Source: an uncultured Gammaproteobacteria bacterium
Lineage (GTDB): Bacteria > Patescibacteriota > Microgenomatia > Levybacterales > UBA12049
Reading direction: 5' to 3'
Assembly: GCA_964637955.1 (NCBI GenBank)
Contig: CAZWXQ010000004.1
Coordinates: 11,368 to 75,367, forward strand
Length of the DNA: 64,000 nt
Shown here piece after piece: positions 11,744 through 50,835 of the stretch (its first letter is position 1; every line of letters begins with the position of its first letter). Below the pieces are notes generated by a model that saw only the letters and a list, made by a program, of their open reading frames with translations, was not told where the DNA came from and ran no database searches. The position numbers and the translations under genes were made by a program.

Positions 11744-12031
11744 ATGGCTAAAAAAGAAAAATCAGTTGAAGAAAAACAAGAAGATAAGAAGTTTCATCTT
11801 GAGGTTATCAAACAAACTATTGCCCTTTCTACTGCAGGGTTTGCTTTGGCTGCAGCACTAGCTTGGAATTCACTTATTCAGGAATTTATAAATACTTATT
11901 TTAAGCGCTATATCCCAGGAGATGGAAAAATACTTTCAATGCTTATTTATGCGCTCCTTGTAACAATTCTTGCAGTTTCAGTAACTCTTTACCTATCAAA
12001 GCTTGCAAATAGAATAGAAAAATCTAAATAA
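11744..12031 (+). CDS. Small membrane protein, hypothetical
   Basis: 95-aa ORF with two hydrophobic helices. Lys-rich N-terminus. Confidence 0.5.
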   Translation: MAKKEKSVEEKQEDKKFHLEVIKQTIALSTAGFALAAALAWNSLIQEFINTYFKRYIPGDGKILSMLIYALLVTILAVSVTLYLSKLANRIEKSK

Positions 12032-12884
12032 ATTCCTTCATTACTTTTGGAATTTCTTCTATCAGATCGCTCGCATTAAAATATATTCCCACAGCTTCTT
12101 CTAAGCTTTCTCCTGCCTTTTTATTTATAAAAGAAGCACAAGCTGCAGAAATAAAAGCATCATTCTTTGCATAAAAAGCAGCAGTAAGTCCTGCTAAAAC
12201 ATCACCGGTTCCGCCTTTTGTAAGTCCTGCATTCCCACCCGTAATAATCATTGATTGATCAGAATTTGCCACAACATCAATTGGTCCTTTAAGGAGTATC
12301 GTAATTCCATATTTCTTAGCCATTTCAGAAACCTTATTTTGAATTTCTGAATTTAGCTCATTTGGATTTGATTGGAAATTGGAAATTGGAAATTGGAAAT
12401 TAAAGAGTTTGGAAAACTCTTTCACATTTGGAGTAATTATTGAAGTTCTTGGCAGAATTTCGGGACTAATTACCTGAAGACTTCCCCCATCTACTACCCA
12501 TTTTTTATCTGGATATCGTGATAACAAGTCTTCAGTTAATGATTTCGTGTCATCATCTCCTTTTTCCTCTCCATCAGGACGAGGAAGTCCTGGACCTATC
12601 AAAACAGAATCCGCATCTCCAATATAATCCTCTACTCTTCCCCTAGGAACTATAATCCCATTTATAAATTTCTCTTTAAGATTTTTTAAGATCTCATTGT
12701 TCATAGGAGTTGAAGAAAAATAAACCATATCGACAATCTTTGAAGTTATTTCAAAAGCCCAAAAAGCCGGAGAGTGAAATAAATCAGATCCGCCAATTAT
12801 CAGAACCTTTCCATTTTCACCTTTTCGAGAATCCGAAGCGGGAACATAAAGCTGTTTTAATAAATTCGCATCAAATTCTTCCAT
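12024..12884 (-). CDS. nnr: ADP-dependent NAD(P)H-hydrate dehydratase (YjeF C-terminal carbohydrate-kinase-like domain)
   Basis: GGNAGLTKGGTGDVLAGL matches the YjeF_C signature (GGxGDvLxG). Confidence 0.8.
   Translation of the reverse strand: MEEFDANLLKQLYVPASDSRKGENGKVLIIGGSDLFHSPAFWAFEITSKIVDMVYFSSTPMNNEILKNLKEKFINGIIVPRGRVEDYIGDADSVLIGPGLPRPDGEEKGDDDTKSLTEDLLSRYPDKKWVVDGGSLQVISPEILPRTSIITPNVKEFSKLFNFQFPISNFQSNPNELNSEIQNKVSEMAKKYGITILLKGPIDVVANSDQSMIITGGNAGLTKGGTGDVLAGLTAAFYAKNDAFISAACASFINKKAGESLEEAVGIYFNASDLIEEIPKVMKEFI
12364..12401. repeat. Heptanucleotide microsatellite (TGGAAAT x4) inside the nnr coding sequence
   Basis: tggaaattggaaattggaaattggaaatt. Encodes SNFQFPISNFQSNP in frame in the minus-strand gene. 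Confidence 0.8.
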
Positions 12885-14707: not shown

Positions 14708-14797
14708 TGTTCATAAACTATTTACAATTGACAATTTTCGCAAGAGCAAACAGAGATCAAATTGTAATTGGTAAATGATAAATAGTAAATATCGGGG

Positions 14798-17738: not shown

Positions 17739-18905
17739 TCAGCGAACTTTTGACTCTACAAACTTTTTAATTTCTTTTTCAAATCTTTCGCGGCTAAACT
17801 TCTGTGCATATTTAGCGATTTCCTCAGAATCAAATTTAGTTTTTTCAAACTTTTTAATTGCTGCATTCAAATTTTCTACATTAAATTCATCGAAAAATAT
17901 ACCTGTTTTACCTTCAATTACAGTCTCTTTTGGTCCTCCGGAATTGTGAGCAATTACTGGCGTTCCTGCCATCATAGCCTCCACTGGAACTATTCCGAAA
18001 TCCTCATCTTTTGAGGCAAATATAAATCCTTTTGCGCCAGCCATAAGCCTATTTTTCTCTTCATCACTTACTTCTCCTAAAAATTCTATATTTTGTTTTT
18101 GGGATTTGGAATTTATGATTTTATTTTTTATTTCCTCTTCAAATCCAGCAAATCCTTTTCCAAAAACTTTTAAAGGCAATCCATTTTTTATAAATGCATC
18201 GATGATAAGATCAGTGTGTTTTGCGCGAGCAATACGTCCTCCTGCTAGATAGTAGGTTTTAGGTTGTAGGGCGTAGTTTTTATCACCACCTACTCCCAAC
18301 CCCCTACTCCCCATATCAACTGGCGGATAAATCACCACTGCATTTTTGCGATAAAACTTTTCAATTCTTCTTTTCGTTTCCTGCGAATTTGCGATGAAAA
18401 AATCTACATTCTGAGAAGACTTAAAATCTATCATTCTTAAGAAATGAATCGTCCACATACCAATAAACTTTGAAACGGCATTTTTTTGCCAATCCCGAGC
18501 GGTTTCATATCCATAAAGATATCGAGGAGGCGTATGCATATAACAAATATGAACAGCTTTTTGCATTTTTCCTTTTTTCTCAGACTTAGTTTGAATAGTG
18601 TTTGGACTATATGCGCCTGTGGCAGAAACTATTACGACATCATATGTAGATAAATCTAAAGATTTAAATAATTCTGGAGCTACGATTCTTATTGGACTAA
18701 TAAGCTTAGAATTAAATGGAATTACATCTGCCCATGAAGTTTTTATTTTCCAGCTTTTAAACCGCTCGCGATGAGGACCTAGATATTTTGGAAGATAAAC
18801 TGAGGTGTATACCGGAGCATCAGGAAACACCTCGTGTAGAGCCTCTAGAACTCTCTCAGCGCCCCCGTATTCTTTAATGTAGTCGTGTACTATTGCTACC
18901 TTCAT
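17739..18905 (-). CDS. Glycosyltransferase family 4 (GT-B, retaining)
   Basis: C-terminal EDFGIVPVEAMMAGTPVIA matches the GT4 nucleotide-sugar-binding motif. 388 aa. Confidence 0.85.
   Translation of the reverse strand: MKVAIVHDYIKEYGGAERVLEALHEVFPDAPVYTSVYLPKYLGPHRERFKSWKIKTSWADVIPFNSKLISPIRIVAPELFKSLDLSTYDVVIVSATGAYSPNTIQTKSEKKGKMQKAVHICYMHTPPRYLYGYETARDWQKNAVSKFIGMWTIHFLRMIDFKSSQNVDFFIANSQETKRRIEKFYRKNAVVIYPPVDMGSRGLGVGGDKNYALQPKTYYLAGGRIARAKHTDLIIDAFIKNGLPLKVFGKGFAGFEEEIKNKIINSKSQKQNIEFLGEVSDEEKNRLMAGAKGFIFASKDEDFGIVPVEAMMAGTPVIAHNSGGPKETVIEGKTGIFFDEFNVENLNAAIKKFEKTKFDSEEIAKYAQKFSRERFEKEIKKFVESKVR
18105..18125. repeat. GGGATTT-type heptamer repeat inside the glycosyltransferase coding sequence
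   Basis: gtttttgggatttggaattt. Encodes NSKSQKQN in the minus-strand gene. Confidence 0.5.
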
Positions 18906-19011
18906 AAACTTAATTTTAAATTTGAAATTTTAAATTTGAAATAAAACATAAATGTTTTAATATTTAAATTTTTAAAAATTGATTGAAAATTGTAAATTGT
19001 AAATTGAAAAT

Positions 19012-19944
19012 TCATAGAAGTCCTAGCTGATCCTCGGAGGGCTCATTCTTTTTTGGCTTTTCTTCTTTTGGTTTTTGATCCAACTTAAACCTAGTGATCA
19101 AACTGTTAAATGATAATGTTTCGAATTCTTTCAATAGCACTTCGCGATCCATTTTTGAAAGCAAGCATTCATCAAATTTAAGATGAATTGGGGCGTTTAT
19201 TTCAATTGTCGCAAGCTTCTTAGCCAATGCCGACTGCTCAGCATCGTTTGCTAATTTCTCGGCAATATTTGGACTTATCTCCCCAATATGCTCATATATT
19301 CCTTCAATATTTTTATATTTATTTAATAAATTTGCAGCCCCCTTTGGTCCAATTCCATTTACTCCTGGATAATTGTCAGAAGAATCCCCCACTAAAGCTT
19401 TGTAATCAATAAACTGAGATGGAGTTAATCCATATTTTTCAACAACTTTTTCTTCATCAAACAAAATCATCTTTGTTACGCCTGTTATTGGCGCAAGAAT
19501 CATTACTTTTTTATTCACAAGTTGAAGCAAATCTCGATCTCCAGTAAGTATTATCACTTCATCCTCGGGACTTTTTTCAATTGCTTGTTTTGAAATAGTC
19601 CCTATAAGATCATCTGCTTCGTATCTATCAAGTTCAAAAACGCAAACATTTATTTTTGCCAATATTTTCCTGATAATTTCAAATTGATTTGACAATTCGA
19701 CTTCCATTTTTGGACGTGTCGCTTGATAACCAACATATAGCTGTTTTCTAAAGGTGGGAGCAGGACGGTCAAAACAAACTACAAGATGCGCCGGTGCAAG
19801 ATCTGAAATTATTTTTAAAGTCATGCTGAAGAATCCATAAACAGCATTGGTAAGCTGCCCATCTTCAGTTTTATGAAGGGGTGGAAGGGCGTGATAAGCG
19901 CGGTGAACTATCGCATTTCCATCTATTAAGACTAATCTACTCAT
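19012..19944 (-). CDS. 5'-3' exonuclease (Pol I-like FEN domain, standalone)
   Basis: MSRLVLIDGNAIVHRAYHALPPL N-terminus. H3TH region GIGPKGAANLL. 310 aa. Confidence 0.9.
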   Translation of the reverse strand: MSRLVLIDGNAIVHRAYHALPPLHKTEDGQLTNAVYGFFSMTLKIISDLAPAHLVVCFDRPAPTFRKQLYVGYQATRPKMEVELSNQFEIIRKILAKINVCVFELDRYEADDLIGTISKQAIEKSPEDEVIILTGDRDLLQLVNKKVMILAPITGVTKMILFDEEKVVEKYGLTPSQFIDYKALVGDSSDNYPGVNGIGPKGAANLLNKYKNIEGIYEHIGEISPNIAEKLANDAEQSALAKKLATIEINAPIHLKFDECLLSKMDREVLLKEFETLSFNSLITRFKLDQKPKEEKPKKNEPSEDQLGLL

Positions 19945-28283: not shown

Positions 28284-29558
28284 ATGATGCGCTTTGAGGG
28301 ACAATATCCGCTAGAGCAAAGACAAATCGTTGATTCTAGAGGCCTTATTCAAGAACCTTTTCCAGATATTCCTCAAGCTCGTTTTGAGGCTATATTTGCG
28401 TCAATAGGTAATTCAGAATCTAAGTGCGCGACGCTTTTAAATCTTCCTCATACCCAACCCACAACAGCATCCGAACTTCATCAAGCATTTAAAGATTCAA
28501 CGAATGAGGCTTGGGATTTGCATCCATCAACAACTCAAAGCTATTGTGAAGAAACTTTTATACCGATTGGTTTTGTTGCTCGTTCAGAAATTCTTTATTA
28601 TGGTCGAACCAAATATAATAAAGGCTATAAAGTAACAGAGTCTGGATTAAGATTTGGTCAACCAATTGCCGCTTTCCTCTTACAGCAGTCAACAGAGCTT
28701 CCCTACGCACTTGAAACTTTATTCAGTATGACATCGAGAGGAAATGGCGGAGAAACCAGAGGTGTAATAAATAGAATAAGAGTTTTAGAAGCATTATATG
28801 AACAAAGAGAGTCTGAGTTTCCTATGACCAATCTTCAGATATCAGAAAAGTTGGATACTCAAAAATCTTATGTAGCAGGTCATTTGAAGTCCTTAAGAGA
28901 TCTTGGACTTATAAACTTTTCATCAATCAGCACAGAAAATAAAAGGATAATACCCTATTCGGTGGTTGGCAAAATACCAATAGCAGAAATTCCTACACTT
29001 AAGGCCGAGCATACTTTAACAAGAAATGTGGCAGAAATCATGAACACACTTGGCACAGCAGATATTCATACTGTAATGGAGGAATATGCAAGACGATTTC
29101 CAAATAATAAAATAGATGGATTTAGAGCTGCTAAAGTACTAAGCTTTCTAGCAAGGCATGGCTATATTGCTTCTGATTTTAAAATCGGAGAGATTCATTC
29201 AAACTCAAAAATTACTGAAGAAGGAATAAAAATTGTTGAAAATATTATTCATCCAATAAAAAGAGCGCTTGAAGGAGATGAAGATTTATTAGATGAATGG
29301 AGAGGTATTCCCTGGAGAGAATATGCAGAATCTGCTGTGAATAAACACAAACTTGCTTCCTCTCAAGCAAACGCAGGAACAATTCAGGAATGGGCATCGG
29401 AAGCGCTAGAAATTATCCTAAATAATCCAGGAATTCGCACAACAGACATAGGCTCAAGAATTAAAACTAATACCTCAGTAGTTTTAAAGTTACTTTTTGA
29501 TGAAGGCTTAATAAGAAAAGAAAAGGACAGAAAAGCTGTCAGATATTATGCTACTTAA
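28284..29558 (+). CDS. Multi-winged-helix DNA-binding protein, hypothetical
   Basis: At least two MarR/ArsR-like wHTH segments (RVLEALYEQRESEFPMTNLQISEKLDTQKSYVAGHLKSLRDLGLI and NPGIRTTDIGSRIKTNTSVVLKLLFDEGLIRK). Confidence 0.5.
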   Translation: MMRFEGQYPLEQRQIVDSRGLIQEPFPDIPQARFEAIFASIGNSESKCATLLNLPHTQPTTASELHQAFKDSTNEAWDLHPSTTQSYCEETFIPIGFVARSEILYYGRTKYNKGYKVTESGLRFGQPIAAFLLQQSTELPYALETLFSMTSRGNGGETRGVINRIRVLEALYEQRESEFPMTNLQISEKLDTQKSYVAGHLKSLRDLGLINFSSISTENKRIIPYSVVGKIPIAEIPTLKAEHTLTRNVAEIMNTLGTADIHTVMEEYARRFPNNKIDGFRAAKVLSFLARHGYIASDFKIGEIHSNSKITEEGIKIVENIIHPIKRALEGDEDLLDEWRGIPWREYAESAVNKHKLASSQANAGTIQEWASEALEIILNNPGIRTTDIGSRIKTNTSVVLKLLFDEGLIRKEKDRKAVRYYAT

Positions 29559-30744
29559 TCCAGGCTTTTTTGAGGTCTTGAAAGTTCCCGTCAATAATTG
29601 ACTGTCTTATTTTGTTTGTCAGATTTACAGTGAAATAAACATTGTGGTATGAGGCAAGAGTATAAGCAAGTAATTCATGTGCTCGGAATATATGATTTAG
29701 ATATGCGCGAGGATGAGTTTTGCAAACATAGCAATGGCAGTTGGGATCAATTGGATTCATGTCAGAAGCAAATTTGGATTTGGTGACATCGAACCTAAAT
29801 CTATTCTTCACATTTCCCTCTTTTGGACTTATAAAAACGTGTCCCATGCGACCAAGACGAGTCTGAATTACACAATCAAAAGAATCCACTCCCCGCTCTA
29901 CACCTTCAAATATATCATCAATTTCACCAATCCCAAGAAGATGCCTTGGCTTGTCTTCGTCCAACTCTTCTACTGTCCATTCTATAACCTCATAAAGATT
30001 TTTCTTGGAAGCATGTGCGCCTCCCATAGCGATAGCATCGAAATTCTCATTAACAAACTTTGCACTCTTTTTTCGAAGGTTTCCAAACTGCCCACCGTGT
30101 GTAACCCCATACATCAACTGATTCGTGCTTTTCTGAGCTTTTAGTGACCTCACAAGCCATCTTTCTGTAAGCTCCAAACTCTTTTTAGTTTCTGCTTCAG
30201 AATAAGTTGGTGATTCCAGATCATCAAAGCCAACTATCAAATCTGCGCCAATCTTTTCCTGAATTTCAATCGAGGTTTCAGGTGAAAGCATATGAGCTGA
30301 GCCGTCGATGTGAGACTGAAACTCTACTCCCTCTTCCGAAATCTTATTCAATCTGGGTTTCGCATCCTCTTCAATTAGGTTTTGGGATTTTTGATTTGGG
30401 ATTTCCTTTAGGAACTTAACTCCTGGTTTTTCCAGACCTACACCAAGTGAGAAAACCTGAAACCCGCCTGAGTCTGTAAAAGTCGGCCCATTCCAATCCA
30501 TCATCTTAGCAAGTCCTCCCATTTTTTCTACCAAATCTTCCCCAGGCTGAAGCATAAGATGATATGTGTTTCCGAGAACTACTTGAGGCCCGATCTCCCT
30601 GATTTGTGCCCCAGTCATGGATTTGAGAGTGCCTTTTGTACCAACCGGGAAAAATGCCGGCGTCAAAACATCTCCATGCGGAGTTTTTATAATTCCTGCT
30701 CTCGCCTTGCCTAGCTTTTTAACAAGTTCAAATTTCGGCTTCAT
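29551..30744 (-). CDS. tgt: Queuine tRNA-ribosyltransferase
   Basis: ARAGIIKTPHGDVLTPAFFPVGTKGTLKSM. Zinc site CHCYVCKTH. 397 aa. Confidence 0.9.
   Translation of the reverse strand: MKPKFELVKKLGKARAGIIKTPHGDVLTPAFFPVGTKGTLKSMTGAQIREIGPQVVLGNTYHLMLQPGEDLVEKMGGLAKMMDWNGPTFTDSGGFQVFSLGVGLEKPGVKFLKEIPNQKSQNLIEEDAKPRLNKISEEGVEFQSHIDGSAHMLSPETSIEIQEKIGADLIVGFDDLESPTYSEAETKKSLELTERWLVRSLKAQKSTNQLMYGVTHGGQFGNLRKKSAKFVNENFDAIAMGGAHASKKNLYEVIEWTVEELDEDKPRHLLGIGEIDDIFEGVERGVDSFDCVIQTRLGRMGHVFISPKEGNVKNRFRFDVTKSKFASDMNPIDPNCHCYVCKTHPRAYLNHIFRAHELLAYTLASYHNVYFTVNLTNKIRQSIIDGNFQDLKKAWIK
30380..30406. repeat. GGGATTT heptamer repeat inside the tgt coding sequence
   Basis: ttttgggatttttgatttgggatttcc. Encodes IPNQKSQN in the minus-strand gene. 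Confidence 0.6.
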
Positions 30745-30794: not shown

Positions 30795-31694
30795 ATGGCA
30801 GGCACAAAAGAAGCTAATCAGCCAAGTATTGAGCAAAAATTTATCGGAAGAGTTTTAGTCGGAAACCCAGACGTCTTGAGCAAGTATCCTGATAGAAATG
30901 TTCATATATTACTCTCAAATGCAGATGGAGTAACCCATTCTTCTCTGGGAAATCTAGGTGATACCTTTGGAATATCACGTCAAGCTATTTCTCAAATTTA
31001 TACAAGAGGGATGAGAACCATATGGGAAACTGCACCTGATGCAGTAAAACAGGATTTTCCAGAATTAGCTAGATATGAGCCAACTAGATCGAAAAAATCA
31101 TGGAACAGAAAAAGAAGAAGGAATCTTCCCTCAGTTCAAGGCGAAGCTGAATTACCACCTCTACCACCTATATTCAGGGTTCATTTACACGAACCTGAAA
31201 CAGATGACATAAAAGAGGAACTAGTTTTAAAAGATGAGGTTGAATACCTAAGTAGAACAAATTCTGTTAAAAGAGTTAGACAGTATCTAGGAGGAGAGAC
31301 ACACTGCGCAAGTACGCTTTCAGGCGTGATTCTACCTATTGATAGCAGCAATAAATCTCATGTTGTTATCATGGCCGATGGTGATGTCTTTGTACTAGGA
31401 CATACAGATATAAATAAAGGCGACTATAATAATTTTGCTAATATAACTGAAAACTGGGGCGCAATTTATCTTCCTGCAGGAATTCCCCAACGTGAAAGCT
31501 TATTAGGATTAGCAGCCTCAAACGGAGCAAGTATGATCGCCAACAATAGACTTGAAAGAGATAAAAAGACAATTCAAGATTCAATTCAGAAAGCTTTTAG
31601 GTTTGAGGCTGAACAGAGTATTACCTCTGCTCAAATGATTAAAACTGAGTTAGCTAATCTTGTCGCATCAGAGGTCAATAGAAGACGAACTTAA
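30795..31694 (+). CDS. Hypothetical protein
   Basis: 299-aa ORF. Confidence 0.5.
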   Translation: MAGTKEANQPSIEQKFIGRVLVGNPDVLSKYPDRNVHILLSNADGVTHSSLGNLGDTFGISRQAISQIYTRGMRTIWETAPDAVKQDFPELARYEPTRSKKSWNRKRRRNLPSVQGEAELPPLPPIFRVHLHEPETDDIKEELVLKDEVEYLSRTNSVKRVRQYLGGETHCASTLSGVILPIDSSNKSHVVIMADGDVFVLGHTDINKGDYNNFANITENWGAIYLPAGIPQRESLLGLAASNGASMIANNRLERDKKTIQDSIQKAFRFEAEQSITSAQMIKTELANLVASEVNRRRT

Positions 31695-33043
31695 TTCTGA
31701 AGTTTTCTGACTTCTTCTTTAAACTTATTTCCGCGGTCTTTGTAGTTTTTAAACATTCCGAAAGAAGCGCATGCAGGAGAAAGCAAAACCACATCGCCTG
31801 GTAGAGCTAATTTACTTACCGCTAGAACTATTTTCTCCATACTATCTGCACCTTCAAGAATAAGAGTTTCCGGTCTTACGTTTTTAATTTGCTCTTTAAT
31901 TCTCGCCCATTCCTCCCCAATTCCTATAATCGCTTTTATTTTTTCTGACTCTCCTATCACTTGACCAAGTTCTGAAAAATCACTGTTCTTTGATGATCCA
32001 CCAAGTATCAAAATTTCTGGATTTTTAAAAGATTTTATGGCGGCAATTGCTGTTTCAGGGGTCGTAGAAAATGAGTCATTATAATATTCAATATTATTAA
32101 CTGTGGCTACCAATTCAAGCCGATGCTCTAGACCTGAAAACGTCTTTAAGACCTCTGTAATCTGCCCAACTCTAACCCCCGCGAGATATGCCGCCATAGT
32201 CGCTGCACAAGCATTTTCATGATTATGATCACCCTTTAAAAGTAATTCTCGGGTATCAATTATTGGCAAATCATTTCCTTTAGCTCTTAAAATTATTTGA
32301 TTCCCTAGCGCAAAGCATCCCTCATCCACTTCTCGCTCCCTTGAGAAATAATATACTTTCCCATCTGTTTTTATATCGCTTTCGTTACTTGCTGGGTAAT
32401 CGCGATTTATAACCGCGAAGTCATCAGGAAACTGATTATTTAAAATATTTCTCTTCGCCTCTACATATTCTTGCGTATCCTTGTGGTAATCAAGATGCTC
32501 ACTTGTAATCATAAGCATTACTGCGATGTGGGGACTTACTGTCAAATCTTGAAGCTGAAATGATGACATTTCAAGAACTACCCAAGACTGCGGAGTAAGT
32601 TTTTCAAGGAATTCAAAGGGTGCAACTCCTATGTTTCCACCTAAATAAGCATCAAAATCTGCAGCTTTAAGCATGTTATAAATTAGAGTCGAGGTCGTCC
32701 CCTTCCCTTTGGTACCTGTCACACCAATAATGTTTTTGGTGGGAGTTAAATCAAAGAAAAGTTTTGTTTGTGAAGTTATCTTTGACTCATCTTTAATCTT
32801 AAATCTTAAATCATTAATCTTAACCCCAGGAGAACGAACTATTAGATCAAAATGATCAAGTCCTTCAAGATAATCTTCACCATTCTTTTGATCTCGGATT
32901 TCTACCTCTGCTCCATGCTTTTTTAGAAACTGTGCGCTAGATTTACCTTCGATTCCTTCTCCGATAACAGCAATTTTCATGTCCTGAAAATCATGCAATG
33001 TTCGATTGGGTTTATCTTTAAAATCTTCAAAAGAATTAATCAT
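31691..33043 (-). CDS. murD: UDP-N-acetylmuramoylalanine--D-glutamate ligase
   Basis: N-terminal KIAVIGEGIEGKSSAQFLKKHG (MurD Rossmann). IGVTGTKGKGTTSTLIYNML (Mur ligase P-loop). Confidence 0.8.
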   Translation of the reverse strand: MINSFEDFKDKPNRTLHDFQDMKIAVIGEGIEGKSSAQFLKKHGAEVEIRDQKNGEDYLEGLDHFDLIVRSPGVKINDLRFKIKDESKITSQTKLFFDLTPTKNIIGVTGTKGKGTTSTLIYNMLKAADFDAYLGGNIGVAPFEFLEKLTPQSWVVLEMSSFQLQDLTVSPHIAVMLMITSEHLDYHKDTQEYVEAKRNILNNQFPDDFAVINRDYPASNESDIKTDGKVYYFSREREVDEGCFALGNQIILRAKGNDLPIIDTRELLLKGDHNHENACAATMAAYLAGVRVGQITEVLKTFSGLEHRLELVATVNNIEYYNDSFSTTPETAIAAIKSFKNPEILILGGSSKNSDFSELGQVIGESEKIKAIIGIGEEWARIKEQIKNVRPETLILEGADSMEKIVLAVSKLALPGDVVLLSPACASFGMFKNYKDRGNKFKEEVRKLQN

Positions 33044-34266: not shown

Positions 34267-34285
34267 GACTTCGCCTGAGCCATTG

Positions 34286-34359
34286 TACCAGGGGTGGGAG
34301 TCGAACCCACGACCTTAGGTTTATGAATCCTATGCTCTAACCAACTGAGCTACCCTGGC
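34286..34359 (-). tRNA. tRNA with anticodon CAT (Met or lysidine-Ile2). CCA is not encoded.
   Basis: Hand-folded cloverleaf: GCCAGGG / TA / GCTC-AGTTGGTTA-GAGC / TAGGA-TTCATAA-ACCTA / AGGTC / GTGGG-TTCGACT-CCCAC / CCCTGGT-A. G1-U72 wobble. Confidence 0.8.
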
Positions 34360-35056
34360 GTGCTAGTCCTTCGATTAATCCTATTATTTTATAATAAATA
34401 CGTGCCGGTTTACTAACTTTAACAGACAAAGTTCCATAATGTTCATTGAAATTATCGTAAATTTTCTTACTTTTTACCTTTTTAAAACTAGTTTTCGTGA
34501 ATTGATCTAATGGAATTCCTGTCATCTCAGACCAATAATATTTAACTAACTGTTCTCTTTTACGATGGGTTTCATTAATTCCAACATAACACCTCATTTG
34601 AGAAATTGGAATTCCAAAGCACGTTTGCAACCAAATCAGGAAGAATTTTATCATTTTAGGATCAGAGTTGCAAAGTTCTATTTTGCGAGTTTTCTTGCTT
34701 CCTTCTCCCCAATACAAAGCTAAACCCGCAATTAATAACTCTCTCTCGGTCATTCCTGAAAGATATTTTAAACCATCTATTCTTGACTCTTGAATTAATT
34801 TTAATCGTCGATTTTTTTGCTCCAATGCGTTTCTTAAACGACCTAATTCTGCACCTTTAATTTTTGATTTTCTCAATTCTTCTAATTGCTCTACGGAAAG
34901 CACAATATCTCTAACCCAAATACTTACTGTGCTTTTTGAAATCTGAAGTTCAGAAGCAATTTTTTTAACGCTTAATCCATTTTTTCTTAATTTTCTAGCC
35001 TCTAATTTAAGTAATGATTTCGCCATCGAACCTACAATATATAATAGTATTAACAC
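34337..35056 (-). CDS. HTH plus LAGLIDADG-like (single-motif) homing-endonuclease-family protein. Its 3' end overlaps the tRNA 5' end by about 22 nt.
   Basis: N-terminal HTH (KLRKNGLSVKKIASELQISKSTVSIWVRDI). LLIAGLALYWGEGSKK resembles the LAGLIDADG motif with its catalytic acidic residue. Confidence 0.45.
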   Translation of the reverse strand: MLILLYIVGSMAKSLLKLEARKLRKNGLSVKKIASELQISKSTVSIWVRDIVLSVEQLEELRKSKIKGAELGRLRNALEQKNRRLKLIQESRIDGLKYLSGMTERELLIAGLALYWGEGSKKTRKIELCNSDPKMIKFFLIWLQTCFGIPISQMRCYVGINETHRKREQLVKYYWSEMTGIPLDQFTKTSFKKVKSKKIYDNFNEHYGTLSVKVSKPARIYYKIIGLIEGLARQGSSVG

Positions 35057-35114: not shown

Positions 35115-35440
35115 CGCGGGGTAGTGTACAGTGCACGTGAGGCTTAATTTAATGGGCCGTTTTGATAGTAATACCAAAAATGAACTCAGCTATTTCGGTG
35201 AACTCCTAAATTTTATTAAGGACAATACCGAGGGAAGACTCGCTTAGGCGAGAACCCGTAGAGACTACACGCTGGGCTCCTAAGCAATCAAGGATTTATA
35301 CAAAGCTTGCCAAAGGATGAAGATATAGTCCGACACTCTGAGTAATCGGAGATAACAGATAGCATAATCTCACAGGCTAGGCGCAACTCCTAGCCCCGCA
35401 ACAAATTTAATGGAGGCATCAAGCCTCCATTTTCTTTAAT
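35115..35440 (+). ncRNA. Candidate structured non-coding RNA of about 320 nt (class unknown), or a long regulated leader
   Basis: A 450-bp gene-free region carries a consensus promoter, several stable hairpins (ctcgc-ttag-gcgag, ggctagg-cgcaact-cctagcc) and an intrinsic terminator. It may contain a 31-codon small ORF (MGRFDSNTKNELSYFGELLNFIKDNTEGRLA). Confidence 0.35.
35412..35440 (+). terminator. Intrinsic terminator: ggaggc-atcaa-gcctcc followed by a T-run
   Basis: ggaggcatcaagcctccattttcttt on the plus strand. Confidence 0.6.
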
Positions 35441-35506: not shown

Positions 35507-36763
35507 TTGATTTTAGCTAAATTTTATCCTATAATAATCGCCGTGAATATGGAAAATAGATTTAGCACACCAATTCAATCAAGTAACGACAGAGGATCTT
35601 TTTATAAAGACGGCCTTGGTATAGGAAAACTTGAGGACAGTCTTGCCAATTATCAAAGAGAGCATGATTTGCGAATTGAAGGCTTAAGAGGCAGTCTTAA
35701 TCAAACAGAGGTAAACATTTTAGAAGCAACTCTAGAACAAGCAAAACAGGCTGGAATTATTACCCTACCCCCTGAATTACAAGACAAAGGTTGGTTTGAA
35801 TTATTAAAAGAAGGTCAAGGAAATGAATTCTATTACCGCTATGGATACTTAAGGCAAATTCCTGAAACCATAGCAGAACTTCGCTCAAAACAAGAACCAT
35901 TATTTTTTATGCCTCATGACTATAAAGATGTTACATTTGAAAATTTTGAGATGCGATGTGATGGACACGAAAAAGCATGGACACTCTTAACTCATTTTGG
36001 CCCAACTCCACCAAAAGGATTATATCTTTGGGGTAATTATGGAACAGGAAAAACTCACCTAATCGCTGCATTTGCACGTGGCCTCCAGGCAGAAATAACT
36101 GCAGGCACATTTGGTAGAATTGCTGATTTCGCTGGCTCTTCAATAGCACAGTACGAAGCTGCATGGAAAGAACAAATGGAACCAGCAAAGCAGGCAGAAC
36201 GAGCAGCATATGATAAATGGAGAGCAGATTCTGCTAATACATCAAAAGGCTATAAAGAATGGCAAACCAAAGAAGGTCAAGTCAAAGCTTTACAAATAGA
36301 ACTAGATCGAATTGTTCCTAGAAATCTCAGAAGAGCAAAAGATGCTTATCCTTTCCAACCCTCTGACATAGCATTTGCAACATTTGATCATCTTATGGAA
36401 CGCTCAGGGGACGAAGAATTTATGAATAAATTTCTTAGCAGAAGAATAGTTATCATAGACGATGTTCATCCAAAAGATGACAGAGCAAGGCTAGATTTTA
36501 TTCAAAGGATAGTAGAAAAACGCTACAATGAATATAGATCAGGCGCTACATTCTTCACAAGCAATCTTTCTCCTGAAAAAGTTCTGGTAGGATCAAACTA
36601 TCCCAAAGAAATAGGTGAAAGAGGCCACAGTAGACTTCGCGAAATGACAATGCCCATAGAATTTGATTCTACAGATTACAGATTAAAAATAGCAGAGCAG
36701 GCAGACGCAGACTTATTAAGACTAGTGGAACAACTTAGGCAAGATCAACCCAGAACAGAATAA
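35507..36763 (+). CDS. DnaC/IstB-like AAA+ ATPase (helicase-loader family) with an N-terminal extension and an insertion of about 110 aa between Walker A and B
   Basis: LYLWGNYGTGKTHLIAAFA (Walker A), RIVIIDDVH (Walker B), FFTSN (sensor I). Alternative start at MENRFS (35549). Confidence 0.65.
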   Translation: MILAKFYPIIIAVNMENRFSTPIQSSNDRGSFYKDGLGIGKLEDSLANYQREHDLRIEGLRGSLNQTEVNILEATLEQAKQAGIITLPPELQDKGWFELLKEGQGNEFYYRYGYLRQIPETIAELRSKQEPLFFMPHDYKDVTFENFEMRCDGHEKAWTLLTHFGPTPPKGLYLWGNYGTGKTHLIAAFARGLQAEITAGTFGRIADFAGSSIAQYEAAWKEQMEPAKQAERAAYDKWRADSANTSKGYKEWQTKEGQVKALQIELDRIVPRNLRRAKDAYPFQPSDIAFATFDHLMERSGDEEFMNKFLSRRIVIIDDVHPKDDRARLDFIQRIVEKRYNEYRSGATFFTSNLSPEKVLVGSNYPKEIGERGHSRLREMTMPIEFDSTDYRLKIAEQADADLLRLVEQLRQDQPRTE

Positions 36764-39511: not shown

Positions 39512-39586
39512 TGGTGGGTTAGGATGGAGTCGGACCATCGACATCTACTTTATAAGAGTAGCGCTCTACCGCTGAGCTACTAACCC
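39512..39586 (-). tRNA. tRNA with anticodon TAT (Ile-UAU). CCA is encoded.
   Basis: GGGTTAG-TA-GCTC-AGCGGTA-GAGC-G-CTACT-CTTATAA-AGTAG-ATGTC-GATGG-TCCGACT-CCATC-CTAACCC-A-CCA. Acceptor, anticodon and T stems are fully paired. The T-loop is unusual (UCCGACU). Confidence 0.7.
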
Positions 39587-46753: not shown

Positions 46754-47332
46754 TTATTTTTTCTTCCAGATCTTTTCTTTTTGTTTTTCTTTGAAATTAA
46801 CGAATCTAGCCATCGTAAAAAGAAGATCTGACAAGCGGTTAAGATAGACAATTATTGTATTGTCGATTTCCTCTGTCCTTGCCAAATCTACGATCCTTCT
46901 CTCAGCCCGTCTAGCAATCGTACGCGCAACGTGAAGACTTGCTCCCCCTCTTCCACCGCCTGGCAAAATAAACTGCGTTAAAGGAGGCATTTCAGAAGTT
47001 AATTCATCGATTAATTTCTCTATTTGCTCTGGCCTTGAAGCAATCTGTGGAGCTGGAAGAGTTGAACTAACAGCAAGAGAAGAACCAATCTCCAGTAAAT
47101 CATTTTGGATTTCAATTAATTCTTGAATGACCAATTCCCAATGACCAATTCCTTTTTTTGTTTTTTGGGATTTGGGATTTGGGATTTGTGTAATTGCGAA
47201 ACCAATTGACGAGTTAAGTTCATCAATCGTTCCATAAGTCTCCACTTTTTTATCAGACTTAAGAACTCTTTTGCCATCAAAAAGAGATGTTTTTCCACTG
47301 TCTCCTGTTCTTGTATAAATTGGTTTAGACAT
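46754..47332 (-). CDS. pduO: ATP:cob(I)alamin adenosyltransferase, PduO type
   Basis: N-terminal IYTRTGDSGKTSLFDG is the PduO/MMAB signature. 192 aa, including a repeat-encoded insertion. Confidence 0.85.
   Translation of the reverse strand: MSKPIYTRTGDSGKTSLFDGKRVLKSDKKVETYGTIDELNSSIGFAITQIPNPKSQKTKKGIGHWELVIQELIEIQNDLLEIGSSLAVSSTLPAPQIASRPEQIEKLIDELTSEMPPLTQFILPGGGRGGASLHVARTIARRAERRIVDLARTEEIDNTIIVYLNRLSDLLFTMARFVNFKEKQKEKIWKKK
47129..47186. repeat. Direct 10-mer repeat (gaccaattcc x2) plus GGGATTT x3 heptamer repeat inside the pduO-like coding sequence
   Basis: gaccaattcccaatgaccaattcc ... gggatttgggatttgggattt. Encodes QIPNPKSQKTKKGIGHWELVIQ in the minus-strand gene. Confidence 0.8.
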
Positions 47333-47852
47333 AAAAAAATCGTTTAGAAAATCTTAAAGCGAGCTCATAACTTCCGAAAAATAAACCCACAAATATCAAA
47401 TCTCCCATTATTGTATTCCTAAAAAATGGTATAGCCATGAAATATGCCTGAACCATACCATCTATTGTTTTGGGGTATAAAGATGTTGCATACCAGAAAT
47501 TAAAATTTGTAAGTAGAAAAAAGATTATTGATGAAATAATGGAAGCACCTAAAATACTTGCCGTATTTTTATGATTTCTTAGCCATAGCCCAATAATTCC
47601 TGATATTAAAAAACTAGCATATACGAGAGGCGTACTGGGACTAAATCCTAAAAAAATATCTGAAGCAATCATAGCCAAAATAGGAATAATTAAAGCATAT
47701 TTTTTATTAAAATAAACTCCTCCAAACAAGGCCATAGCGGCTATAGGTGCAATATTTGCTGGATGAGGAATCAATCTTAAAAATGCACCAAACAATATAG
47801 CAATAAATGGAAGAATAAAATATTCAATTTTTAGTAATTTTGAATTTTCCAT
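47325..47852 (-). CDS. Polytopic membrane protein, possible ECF-type or vitamin-transporter S-component (B12 context)
   Basis: 175 aa with about 5-6 TM helices. Lies between the DUF4430-like gene and pduO. Confidence 0.4.
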   Translation of the reverse strand: MENSKLLKIEYFILPFIAILFGAFLRLIPHPANIAPIAAMALFGGVYFNKKYALIIPILAMIASDIFLGFSPSTPLVYASFLISGIIGLWLRNHKNTASILGASIISSIIFFLLTNFNFWYATSLYPKTIDGMVQAYFMAIPFFRNTIMGDLIFVGLFFGSYELALRFSKRFFYV

Positions 47853-48244
47853 TCTATTAAATCTCCTTCCTGAGTCATGTAATCAGCAGGCCCAACCTGG
47901 GATTCTTTTCCATTAACAATAAATGCCCAAAACTCTCTTTTATTTTCATCTGCCTGCCTACCATTAATCGAGGTAACCAAGCCTGATGTTACCTGCTTGA
48001 TAGTTGTTTTTTCTTTGAGAACTTCTAATGCACTTTTGCCTTCAACTCCCTGATACGAAAAACTATTATTCTGAGCTGAAACTGTAGGCCTTGAGCTTAA
48101 TTTTTTATTCTGCTGATTATAAAAAACAAATAAGACACCCCCGGCTAATATAATTAGAATTAAAATAATTAAAAATAATTTATTTCTTTTTCCCATAAAA
48201 AAAACTCCCCGTTTGTCCTGTAAGGACTCTCGAGAAGTCGACAA
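47831..48244 (-). CDS. DUF4430-like (transcobalamin beta-domain-like) small membrane-anchored protein
   Basis: C-terminal FWAFIVNGKESQVGPADYMTQEGDLIEWK fits the DUF4430 pattern (W.y.VNG....G....l..GD.I.W). Immediately downstream of a cobalamin-riboswitch-like leader. Confidence 0.5.
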   Translation of the reverse strand: MSTSRESLQDKRGVFFMGKRNKLFLIILILIILAGGVLFVFYNQQNKKLSSRPTVSAQNNSFSYQGVEGKSALEVLKEKTTIKQVTSGLVTSINGRQADENKREFWAFIVNGKESQVGPADYMTQEGDLIEWKIQNY

Positions 48245-48380
48245 ATAGATCTTGCTCGAGAATAAAATAAGGTGGTTTTCCGACTTTACGGTAGCGGCAC
48301 TGTGTGGGATTTCCAGCTCATCATTATTGATGAGCAGTCACCCGTCTTGCCCAATCCTTATTGCAAATATTTTAGTATCT
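48245..48380 (-). promoter_or_regulatory. Cobalamin (B12) riboswitch candidate in the leader of the DUF4430 / S-component / pduO operon
   Basis: The minus-strand RNA contains GGGCAAGACGGGUGA...GGAAAUCCCACACAGUGCCGCUACCGUAAAG, matching the conserved AGGGAA..GGUG.AA.UCC....C.G..CCCGC.ACUGUAA core. The genomic context is B12-related. Confidence 0.5.
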
Positions 48381-48435
48381 AAATAGTAGGCATTAGAGAC
48401 TTCCAAACATATCTCTAATATCTACTACTCAAACA

Positions 48436-50835
48436 CTAACATTCACTATGTCCACATGAATAGCATTTTCCACAACCTTCTTCGTATACGAAACTGCTAG
48501 TTCCACATTCTGGGCAAATATCCATCGTGTGTGTTTTTGGCTTTGTGTCCATGGTTATTCCCTCCTGAAGTGGAAGCTGTGTAAGAACTGTAATTTCTTC
48601 TTTTTCTTCTATTTGCTCTGAGACAATTGGCGCATCAGCTGGAGCTGAAGCAACTGGTGTTACTACCCCTGGAGCGAGCTTATCCTCCACTACTCCATTT
48701 ACCTTAAATGCATACTGCTTAGCTAGAACCTTGGCAATAGCATCTGGCAGAGATCTAACTCGGTTTTCTCCAAAACCTACACTTCTTGCTCCTCCTATTC
48801 CGGAGAGCTGACTTATAACTTGCCTTATCCTCTCGCGCGGCGGCAGGTTGCCTGCGAGACGAAGGTTTAGAGACACCATGCGACCAAGTGCATCAGCCAT
48901 AGCAGATAAATCTGATCCTGGCTTTCCAATCGTGATAAAGACTTCAAAAGGTTCTCCATTTTGATCGTGATTTAATGTGATATATGTGTCTCCAACTGGA
49001 GTTTGAGTCTTATATGTAACTCCTTCTACCATCATAGGCCTTGGTGCACGAACAATCTCCTTAGGAAGAACTGCAGCTTTAGCTTCCTCTTTTGGTTTTT
49101 CATCAACATGAGAAAGCACACCTTGTCGCGAACCGTCTCTGAAATAAGTAACACCCTTTAATCCGTTATCATAAGCCATCATGTAAAGATTTTTTACATC
49201 TTCTACACTATGTCCATTTGGCGCGTTCACTGTTTTAGAAATAGAAGAATCGATATATTCCTGCGCAATTGCTTGAACCATAACATGCTCTTCTGGAGTC
49301 AGGTCATTTGATGAAGCAAAATAATCTGGCTTTGCTTCCCCTGGATGTTTTTTCTGCCACTCTTCATAAAGCGGGTGGAACATTCTATGCTCCCCTAGCC
49401 TGTCTCGTCTGATAAATTCAAACTCATAAACTGGCTCAACTCCAGATGAAACTCCAGAAATCAAACTTGTAGTTCCGGTTGGAGCAATAGTAAGAAGTAC
49501 GGCATTTCTGATTCCATTTTTGGCAATCCTTGCTTGCAACCATTTCGGAAGATTCTGAATGTGATATCCCTGAAGATATTTTTCTTTATCAAACTTAGGA
49601 AATGCTCCTTTTTCCTTTGCAATATCACTTGAAGCCTCATAAGCATTATTCCTGAGAGTTTCAAAAATTTTCTTAATGGTTTCCTCAGACTCTGGTGCGC
49701 CGTATCTAAGCTTCATCTTAATAAGTGCATCTGCAAGCCCTAAAATGCCTAAACCAGTTCTTCTAATGTCTTTTGCTACCTGCTCATTTTCTTTGAAGAA
49801 ATAATACGTGTCATCTATTACATTATCCAAAAATCTCATTGCGACTTTTACATCCTTACCAAATGAAACGAAGTCAAATTTTTCGTTTTTTACATAGGCT
49901 GCTAGATTCATGGCACCTAGATTGCAAACTGCCCATGCTCCAAGAGGCTGTTCTCCACATGGATTTGTAGCAATAAGTTTTTCAAAATACCAAGTGTTGC
50001 TTCTTTTATTGGATCTTTCGAGGAAGTGAAGGCCTGGCTCAGCACTTCGCCATGCTGCTGTACAAATAAGATCCCATAATTCTTTTGCTTTTACCGTTTT
50101 ATAAACTTTTGTTTTTCTTCCAGCTTTTTTCCAACCAATTAAATCTCCATCCCAATCTTTATCATAATTTGGATCATCTAGATCTGGGTATTCTAGATTC
50201 CAATCAGCATCTGCTTTTACAGCTTCCATGAAAGCATCAGATACACAAACCGAGAGATTTGCGCCATTAATCTTAGTCAAATCTTCTTTTACGGTAATAA
50301 ATTCCTCAACATCAGGATGCCAATCATGAAGCATAAGCATAGTTGCTCCACGGCGGCTTCCACCCTGCTGTACAACATCATGAGTTGCATAAGAGAACAA
50401 GCCAGCCCATGTAACTGGACCTGAAGAAAATCCATTAACTTTCTTTACCCTTGCACCGCGAGGCCTTAGAGAAGATAAATTCAAACCAACTCCACCTGAG
50501 CGAGACTGAATCTCAACTAATTGCTTTAAGGAATCAATTATTCCTTCACGACTATCTTTTGGAGATGGAATAACAAAACAATTAAAATAAGTTACTTGGA
50601 AATCTGTTCCTGCACCTGAGAGAATTCTACCGCCTGGAACGAACTTGAAGTCGCTCATTACATCATAGAATTTTTTCTCCCAAACTCCACGAGCTGTTTT
50701 TCTTTCCTGCTTAGCAATACCCTTAGCTACTCTTCTCCACATTTCTTCTGGAGTTTTTTCCAATGCATTACCTTCTTTATCTTTTAAAGAATATCTGTCT
50801 AAAAATACTTTTTCTCTTACGCCATCAAGTTTCAT
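48436..50835 (-). CDS. nrdJ: Adenosylcobalamin-dependent (class II) ribonucleotide reductase
   Basis: N-terminal VFLDRYSLKDKEGNALEKTPEEMWRRVAKGIA is typical of NrdJ. NPCGEQPL active-site cysteine region. C-terminal Cys4 zinc ribbon. 799 aa. Confidence 0.8.
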   Translation of the reverse strand: MKLDGVREKVFLDRYSLKDKEGNALEKTPEEMWRRVAKGIAKQERKTARGVWEKKFYDVMSDFKFVPGGRILSGAGTDFQVTYFNCFVIPSPKDSREGIIDSLKQLVEIQSRSGGVGLNLSSLRPRGARVKKVNGFSSGPVTWAGLFSYATHDVVQQGGSRRGATMLMLHDWHPDVEEFITVKEDLTKINGANLSVCVSDAFMEAVKADADWNLEYPDLDDPNYDKDWDGDLIGWKKAGRKTKVYKTVKAKELWDLICTAAWRSAEPGLHFLERSNKRSNTWYFEKLIATNPCGEQPLGAWAVCNLGAMNLAAYVKNEKFDFVSFGKDVKVAMRFLDNVIDDTYYFFKENEQVAKDIRRTGLGILGLADALIKMKLRYGAPESEETIKKIFETLRNNAYEASSDIAKEKGAFPKFDKEKYLQGYHIQNLPKWLQARIAKNGIRNAVLLTIAPTGTTSLISGVSSGVEPVYEFEFIRRDRLGEHRMFHPLYEEWQKKHPGEAKPDYFASSNDLTPEEHVMVQAIAQEYIDSSISKTVNAPNGHSVEDVKNLYMMAYDNGLKGVTYFRDGSRQGVLSHVDEKPKEEAKAAVLPKEIVRAPRPMMVEGVTYKTQTPVGDTYITLNHDQNGEPFEVFITIGKPGSDLSAMADALGRMVSLNLRLAGNLPPRERIRQVISQLSGIGGARSVGFGENRVRSLPDAIAKVLAKQYAFKVNGVVEDKLAPGVVTPVASAPADAPIVSEQIEEKEEITVLTQLPLQEGITMDTKPKTHTMDICPECGTSSFVYEEGCGKCYSCGHSEC

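Follow-up and report, generated by a model that had tools for sequence, protein, structure and literature searches.

Genes and arrays at the locus

The window analysed here (64,000 nucleotides (nt) of contig CAZWXQ010000004.1, assembly GCA_964637955.1, with a G+C content of 36.7%) contains short tandem arrays of heptanucleotide units, several of them in frame within housekeeping genes. An initial annotation of this DNA had reported runs of GGGATTT in three genes, all on the minus strand: those encoding a PduO-type ATP:cob(I)alamin adenosyltransferase (46754-47332, 192 amino acids (aa), Pfam PF01923 Cob_adeno_trans, E=1.7e-56), a tRNA-guanine transglycosylase, Tgt (29551-30744, 397 aa, PF01702, E=2.3e-120), and a GT4-family glycosyltransferase (17739-18905, 388 aa, PF00534 and PF13439). 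These runs are probably three instances of short heptanucleotide tandem arrays that occur lineage-wide in the genomes of Candidatus Levybacteria.

The PduO gene belongs to a conserved cluster on the minus strand (46754-50835), also found in the related locus L089, together with genes for NrdR, a class II (B12-dependent) ribonucleotide reductase (RNR), a DUF4430 protein and a DUF6580 protein. Class II RNR is expected to need adenosylcobalamin, and the cluster is consistent with PduO providing it to the reductase. Searching genome collections with the class II RNR returned 80 loci, the top match being 89% identical, and the meaningfully labelled loci among them identify the host group as Candidatus Levybacteria/Levyibacteriota (Microgenomates, Candidate Phyla Radiation (CPR)); the source is a groundwater bacterium with a tiny genome. 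A metagenome scan with PduO gave only 8 loci. The pooled set used for the counts below consists of the window and loci L001-L088, 1.58 Mb in total and mostly around the RNR region, and was divided into coding and intergenic DNA by long open reading frames (ORFs) of at least 120 aa, in place of gene calls. Stretches of 13.6 kb and 6.5 kb, both spanning the PduO array, show 100% identity between the window and two independent Logan assemblies (SRR14271336 and SRR14271332); the array is therefore no assembly artefact. Because the Logan contigs with the exact PduO protein are 100% identical, they come from the same population and are uninformative on variation.

The PduO array

The three tandem copies of GGGATTT reported in the PduO gene are present at 47167-47187 and encode the peptide IPNPKSQKTKK. 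They form part of a perfect (TTTGGGA)x3.6 core on the minus strand (47164-47188; 100% matches in Tandem Repeats Finder (TRF)). The direct repeat described beside them also exists, at 47126-47152, although its unit is a 14-mer, AATGACCAATTCCC (x1.9 by TRF), and not a 10-mer. Together they make up a composite block of nine in-register heptamers (47126-47188, minus strand, 63 nt) with a lag-7 score of 19/21, encoding QIPNPKSQKTKKGIGHWELVI. On the plus strand the block reads AATGACC AATTCCC AATGACC AATTCCT TTTTTTG TTTTTTG GGATTTG GGATTTG GGATTTG, that is, on the coding strand, CAAATCC three times and CAAAAAA twice, followed by AGGAATT GGTCATT GGGAATT GGTCATT.

Compared with close homologs, the net insert in PduO is about +13 aa. 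The segment between the motifs DELNS and IQNDL has 20 residues in 101 of the 119 measurable homologs, 27 in four and 32-34 in eleven, with 33 in the window, so that loop lengths differ in steps of about 7 and 14 residues. The insert is missing in the nearest genome representatives (L001-L008) and is found at the same site in a subset of homologs with 64-74% identity, where the DNA carries arrays of other units: CAAATCA x4 and CAAAAAA x1 in L093, CAATTTC x4 in L094 and a decayed array in L086, while the PduO of L020 has an independent (AAACTCA)x4.7 array. The arrays of the window (CAAATCC x3 and CAAAAAA x2) and of L093 have equal total length in proteins only 64% identical, and CAAATCC differs from CAAATCA by one base in every copy. 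Equal length with the same one-base change in all copies, at this level of protein identity, argues for homogenisation within the array with the frame maintained. Orthologous PduO arrays are uniform within a lineage and unlike between lineages, which points to ongoing slippage and unit turnover under a preserved frame.

In structural comparisons, the PduO insert aligns to the gap between the first two helices of PDB chains 36zl and 3ke4. The AlphaFold2 model of the protein (mean pLDDT, predicted local distance difference test, of 86) has a helix at residues 28-49, a loop at 50-63 and a second helix at 64-86, with a mean pLDDT of only about 57 (low confidence) over residues 51-60. The insert is thus modelled as the loop joining helix 1 and helix 2.

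In another PduO homolog, L082, a GC-rich hairpin-forming element of 72 nt (2435-2506, -28.8 kcal/mol) lies in frame within the heptamer array and encodes PPLRASFAEVATKAEQGFAGRA. Peptides resembling that of this element are present in other Levybacteria in the Tgt loop (AEVASENLLGPAIRLSSGEDF...), and also close to the C-termini of PduO proteins (GSLRAS, FGRLRAS), which suggests a second family of in-frame-inserting repeats; no further copy of the hairpin element itself was found in the DNA examined.

The Tgt and GT4 arrays

The repeats in Tgt and GT4 are degenerate, with lag-7 scores of 15/21. The Tgt array has four units (30377-30404, minus strand), which read AGGTTTT GGGATTT TTGATTT GGGATTT on the plus strand, the two exact units being in register and 14 nt apart, and AAATCCC AAATCAA AAATCCC AAAACCT on the coding strand. 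It encodes IPNQKSQN, a net insert of about +6 aa relative to close homologs, and is absent from the 86%-identical homologs P0122-P0124. Residues 102-131 are an insertion relative to residues 111-113 of the Zymomonas mobilis TGT, an alignment used to place the loop as the AlphaFold2 model of Tgt is too low in confidence over residues 55-132.

Among Levybacteria, Tgt is hypervariable between the motifs GVKFLK and PRLNKI, with length modes of 12 and 18-19 residues. Heptamer-type peptides recur in this loop (for example QLPNTNDQLPIEE), as in L091, where the DNA reads TTACCAA ATACCAA TGACCAA TTACCAA; the Tgt of P0222 has PNHKSQITN. The array in L092 reads AAATAGC AAATAGC AAATTGC AAATAGA AAATAGT, with TTG at the one position where TAG would be an in-frame stop. 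Six other Tgt homologs (P0139, P0147, P0152, P0159, P0203 and P0220) have segments of 84-87 residues between the same anchors, for instance ...DRKLKIESRALKVEDRRSINPQSSILKNPSSTIHDLPSES, and these look like another repetitive element translated in frame.

The GT4 array (18094-18128, minus strand) reads TTGTTTT GGGATTT GGAATTT ATGATTT TATTTTT on the plus strand and encodes INSKSQKQ. Its core, GGGATTT GGAATTT ATGATTT at 18101-18121, has one exact unit only and gives the peptide NSKSQKQN. The distance between flanking anchors is 32 residues in the common form and 36 in the window, a net gain of +4 aa. A relative with 80% identity has the insert TNSKSQNT, a peptide present in the GT4 of P0246, and other lineages have seven additional residues, NHESRIK or NYELRIK. 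The same gene has a second heptamer-periodic stretch at 18246-18311 on the minus strand (TRF 18252-18270 and 18285-18311; peptide MGSRGLGVGGDKNYALQPKTY), with units GGGAGTA GGGGGTT GGGAGTA GGTGGTG ... CTACGCC CTACAAC CTAAAAC CTACTAT on the coding strand, which amounts to about +9 aa against the closest homolog. The same permissive loops of PduO, Tgt and GT4 carry different heptamer units from one lineage to another.

Excess of period 7 in the window and in related DNA

Enrichment of the motif GGGATTT as such was ruled out, with 19 matches in the window against 15.0 ± 3.9 expected. Regarding the period, the window has four perfect runs with period 7 and 2.5 or more copies, against 0.1 expected in shuffles. 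At a threshold of at least 17/21 matches, the lag test gave six arrays with period 7 and nothing at lags 4-6 and 8-12; three of the six are in genes (NnrD-type, MurD and PduO) and three are intergenic. When the threshold is lowered to 15/21, nine regions appear at lag 7 against 0-5 at other periods. The Tgt and GT4 sites, taken alone, are statistically borderline, and draw their support mainly from the comparison with homologs.

Period 7 accounts for 78 arrays in the pooled Levybacteria DNA, whereas each of the other periods from 4 to 12 gives only 0-15. Perfect arrays of at least three copies number 18 at period 7 and none in local shuffles, with 0, 1, 1, 0 and 0 at periods 5, 6, 8, 9 and 10, respectively. 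For period-7 arrays of at least two copies, the excess over shuffles is small (146 against 101). As the excess is small at two copies and strong at three, the bias acts at the expansion of arrays and not at their seeding. The array units are diverse and mostly AT-rich.

The additional arrays of the window illustrate this diversity. A perfect (ATTGGAA)x4.4 array with a lag-7 score of 21/21 lies at 12371-12401 (minus strand) in a gene for an NAD(P)H-hydrate dehydratase of the YjeF-C/NnrD type (12024-12884, minus strand) and encodes FNFQFPISNFQS. In the MurD gene (31691-33043, minus strand) there is an imperfect (ATCTTAA)x5 array at 32785-32823 on the same strand (TRF x5 at 32789-32823; peptide VKINDLRFKIKDE), which replaces existing sequence, the net gain being only +1 to +2 aa over the MurD proteins of L091 and L092. 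The intergenic arrays are (AATTTTA AATTTGA)x2.2 at 18908-18952, between the GT4 gene and a 5'-3' exonuclease gene (TRF and lag-7), ATTGAAA / ATTGTAA x4.4 at 18978-19018 (TRF, with an exact run of 4.4 copies at 18982-19012), and a degenerate array of about four units at 14762-14792 (TRF consensus AAATAGT x4.7). The view of the initial annotation, specific to GGGATTT and to three genes, was therefore too narrow, since arrays with many different units occur across the genome and the lineage, in the NnrD-type and MurD genes, at two more places in GT4, in intergenic DNA and, in relatives, in the genes for glyceraldehyde-3-phosphate dehydrogenase (GAPDH) and phosphoglycerate kinase (PGK).

The in-frame GAPDH arrays are found in the same loop in three species (L010 4742-4786, L020 4096-4139 and L046 2586-2630), with units AAATTCA and AAGTTCA, while those of PGK are at differing positions (L014 4320-4361, L016 4976-5008 and L072 4250-4293). 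Arrays of AAATCCC recur only sporadically, as in an unrelated small protein of L025 (7629-7667). In L068, an intergenic (GGAATTA)n array of more than 17 copies (12578-12803) immediately 3' of the RNR gene is broken by a stretch of N; long heptamer arrays are a probable cause of breaks in metagenome-assembled genomes (MAGs). No known RNA family overlapped any array in an Rfam scan.

Coding and intergenic arrays

The distribution of arrays between coding and intergenic DNA is strongly biased: 40 of the 78 pooled arrays are outside long ORFs, though these span about 92% of the DNA, and intergenic density is about 10-fold above coding density. Coding and intergenic arrays also differ in composition. 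Of the 40 consensus units of coding arrays, read on the coding strand, 27 are stop-free in any rotation and 30 are richer in A than in T, whereas 30 of 39 intergenic units have stops on both strands. Translated, the coding arrays give peptides with a 7-residue period, such as NSKFKIQ, NFKFQIS and KSQIPNP.

Origin of the arrays and alternative explanations

The explanation that we favour is a mutational process that strongly favours 7-nt steps, most simply replication slippage, which would expand chance adjacent similar heptamers genome-wide. In intergenic DNA any unit could persist and arrays could lengthen. In genes, most arrays would be removed by selection, the survivors being those that keep the frame, often with a net gain of about 21 nt (three units, 7 aa), that have no in-frame stop, that mostly have the A-rich strand as the coding strand and so give peptides rich in N, K, S, Q and P, and that lie in permissive surface loops; purifying selection would also purge coding arrays encoding hydrophobic stretches. 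Confinement of the survivors to such loops would explain why the same loops carry arrays in many lineages, and continued slippage would keep units uniform inside an array while arrays of separate lineages drift apart. The homogenisation within arrays implies that slippage happens over evolutionary time; that it also generated the arrays, and that the coding inserts are effectively neutral, we infer from the patterns described above.

Several points weigh against this explanation. No copy-number polymorphism was found between strains or consensus assemblies, so that slippage is not directly observed, and the indel spectrum between relatives, in which steps of 7, 14 and 21 nt were sought, is swamped by alignment noise at 75-87% identity. 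Net inserts are not always multiples of 21 nt (+39 in PduO, about +18 in Tgt, +12 in GT4 and +3 to +6 in MurD), which implies histories more complex than clean gains of three units. With long ORFs standing in for gene calls, individual arrays may have been misassigned to coding or intergenic DNA, and the related DNA comes mostly from around one locus, the RNR region. The cause of the 7-nt preference lies outside the explanation, and it is still conceivable that the loops, or the intergenic arrays, have a function.

The initial annotation had offered two readings, phase variation and tolerated proliferation of repeats, and it is the second that the evidence favours. If PduO, Tgt and GT4 were contingency loci, the gain or loss of one or two heptamers would toggle them, as in E. 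coli NeuO. As that annotation stated, the reading frame continues through the repeats, which contribute hydrophilic loops, and by the logic of the sequence a slip of one or two 7-nt units would shift the frame; the uniformity within arrays, moreover, implies slippage on an evolutionary time scale. The PduO gene, however, adjoins that of the B12-dependent class II RNR, which is expected to need adenosylcobalamin, and the affected genes (PduO, Tgt, MurD, NnrD and GT4, with GAPDH and PGK in relatives) are core housekeeping genes of a reduced genome, as opposed to surface or accessory ones. NeuO provides a documented precedent, in which (AAGACTC)n is ON only if n is divisible by 3, but its tracts have 3-53 units, most commonly 20, and the gene is out of frame in 65.6% of complete genomes (PMC13001214), whereas the perfect tracts in the window have at most 4.4 units. 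Among the matches listed, homologs of PduO, Tgt and GT4 cover at least 85% of the query, and no allele broken at the array is apparent. The array loops are identical in four PduO and three Tgt strain-level clusters (90%-identity protein clusters) from several samples, with about 96-100% identity where measured. In these and in three GT4 clusters, the proteins vary in length only at their ends; the single exception is a gap of 2 aa in one Tgt pair, close to the N-terminus and away from the array loop. The consensus of the array is likewise the same in two read sets. Of the outcomes that the initial annotation had named as refuting its reading, the sharing of insertions with homologs is seen in part, in relatives with 64-74% identity for PduO and 80% for GT4. 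Of four features of contingency loci, the arrays have a non-triplet coding unit but neither a long hypermutable tract, nor, among the strains and consensus sequences compared, both in-frame and out-of-frame alleles, nor a location in an accessory or surface gene. Short tracts, essential genes and the absence of out-of-frame or copy-number variants among the sequences compared thus make phase variation very unlikely.

Selection for the inserts themselves is somewhat easier to entertain, though we still regard it as unlikely. The K/N/S/Q loops, or the arrays as DNA or RNA, would then be kept for a role, for example by forming new disordered regions or interaction surfaces, or by being bound by a protein that reads heptamers. 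The same loops are indeed occupied across relatives at 64-80% identity, the tandem repeats of Borgs create new disordered regions under selection (PMC9879509), and the intergenic heptamer repeats of Beggiatoaceae have been proposed to be regulatory (PMC4679880). Yet the closest relatives do without the inserts, as shown by PduO in L001-L008 and in the 101 of 119 homologs with the short loop, and by Tgt in the 86%-identical P0122-P0124. Units and peptides vary freely among lineages and the enzymes affected are unrelated, and stop-free units with an A-rich coding strand are the expected residue of purifying selection against harm, not sequence-specific conservation. Insertion of small mobile elements targeting genes, in the manner of miniature inverted-repeat transposable elements (MITEs) or Rickettsia palindromic elements (RPEs), seems highly improbable. 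It would fit in-frame insertions in surface loops, as known for RPEs, and a separate GC-rich hairpin element does lie in frame within the L082 PduO array, but the arrays are pure 7-nt tandem repeats, with no inverted termini, shared flanks or common sequence between sites, their units differ at every locus, and the window shows no enrichment of GGGATTT. Low-complexity sequence arisen by chance, given an AT-rich genome, is hardly credible as a general explanation. It finds some ground in the 36.7% G+C content of the window and in the Tgt and GT4 arrays, which reach only 15/21, a threshold at which other periods give 0-5 regions. However, shuffles and the controls at other lags exclude it for the entire class and, individually, for the arrays in PduO, YjeF-C and MurD, and relatives have clear heptamer arrays in exactly those loops that hold the Tgt and GT4 sites.

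Slippage filtered by selection may have a more specific basis. It is conceivable, though not likely, that a 7-nt-step mutational process, either dedicated or idiosyncratic, operates in Levybacteria and possibly in further CPR lineages, where it would continually seed, expand and homogenise arrays and yield 7-residue loop modules in enzymes that are otherwise highly conserved, some of these modules perhaps being co-opted; such a process could belong to the replication or repair machinery.

Comparison with known repeats

The closest known counterparts are the heptanucleotide simple sequence repeats (SSRs) of prokaryotes. As summarised in PMC4679880 and PMC4692102 from Mrazek et al. 2007, heptanucleotides are the most abundant class of 5-11 nt repeats in most prokaryotic genomes, and polymerase slippage, with a stretch of about 7 nt contacting the polymerase, is the proposed cause. 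The Levybacteria arrays share with these SSRs, and with the short tandemly repeated repetitive (STRR) sequences of Calothrix and Nostoc as far as these summaries describe them, the tandem 7-nt units, the over-representation of period 7 (here in the sampled loci), the diversity of units and the preference for non-coding DNA. They differ in their host, a CPR bacterium with a small, low-GC genome, whereas longer repeat runs are, in the summary given by PMC4692102, more frequent in non-pathogens and in large, high-GC genomes. They also differ in that roughly half of the arrays are in frame inside core housekeeping genes. The 14-mer of the window contains TGACCAA, the reverse complement of the STRR unit TTGGTCA.

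The (AAGACTC)n repeat of E. coli K1 NeuO is also a coding heptanucleotide, and its product is full-length only at counts that keep the frame, three units being seven residues. Its tracts are long (3-53 units), situated at the 5' end, polymorphic and mostly out of frame, in an accessory, phage-borne surface-modification gene (PMC13001214), whereas the arrays described here are short, mid-gene, invariant among close strains and in housekeeping genes. The GGGNATC repeats of Xanthomonas and Nostoc (PMC4692102) and the TAACTGA repeats of Beggiatoaceae, cyanobacteria and Bacteroidetes (PMC4679880) are similarly dispersed, with 2 to about 26 units, mostly intergenic and occasionally in ORFs. Both systems have one dominant unit and a proposed structural or regulatory role (G-quadruplex, translational control), while the Levybacteria arrays have neither a dominant unit nor a G-tract.

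As regards repetitive DNA tolerated in frame, which adds surface or disordered segments to proteins, RPEs are dispersed palindromic elements of roughly 100-150 bp. The arrays resemble them in their in-frame position in permissive loops, and no dispersed palindromic copies of one element were found. The tandem repeats of Borgs (PMC9879509) are likewise tolerated in frame within genes. Neither RPEs nor Borg repeats are known as arrays of 7-nt units whose frame is preserved only when the units come in threes. No paper on heptamer arrays in Levybacteria, CPR or Patescibacteria was found in a literature search. The comparison points to three new aspects: the small-genome, low-GC CPR host, the large proportion of arrays that lie in frame within essential enzymes, and concerted evolution under a frame constraint.

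The preference of bacteria for 7-nt units has been a standing puzzle since heptamers were discovered in cyanobacteria and, later, throughout prokaryotes, and the bias is now seen in an uncultivated CPR lineage with a minimal genome. The arrays form a natural experiment in which the same mutational input is found with and without coding constraint, making the filters of frame, stop codons, strand and loop visible. They account for the unusual insertions rich in K, N, S and Q, and for the variable lengths, of CPR housekeeping proteins, features that can mislead alignments, phylogenies and annotation, and the intergenic arrays are likely break points in the assembly of MAGs.

Other features of the window

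A 299-aa ORF on the plus strand (30795-31694), with no Pfam match, lies between the Tgt and MurD genes and opposite to them in orientation. Because MurD and Tgt are directly adjacent in L091 and L092, it looks like a lineage-specific insertion. An Rfam group I intron match covers the full length of the model at 35135-35352 on the plus strand, with 71.9 bits against a gathering score of 50. It lies in an apparent intergenic gap between an ORF for a helix-turn-helix protein (34337-35056, minus strand) and an AAA-ATPase-like ORF (35507-36763, plus strand), and no rRNA, tRNA or obvious host gene was found around it. The window also has a tRNA-Met (CAT) at 34285-34359 and a tRNA-Ile with anticodon TAT (UAU) at 39512-39586 on the minus strand, the latter being an uncommon bacterial means of reading AUA.

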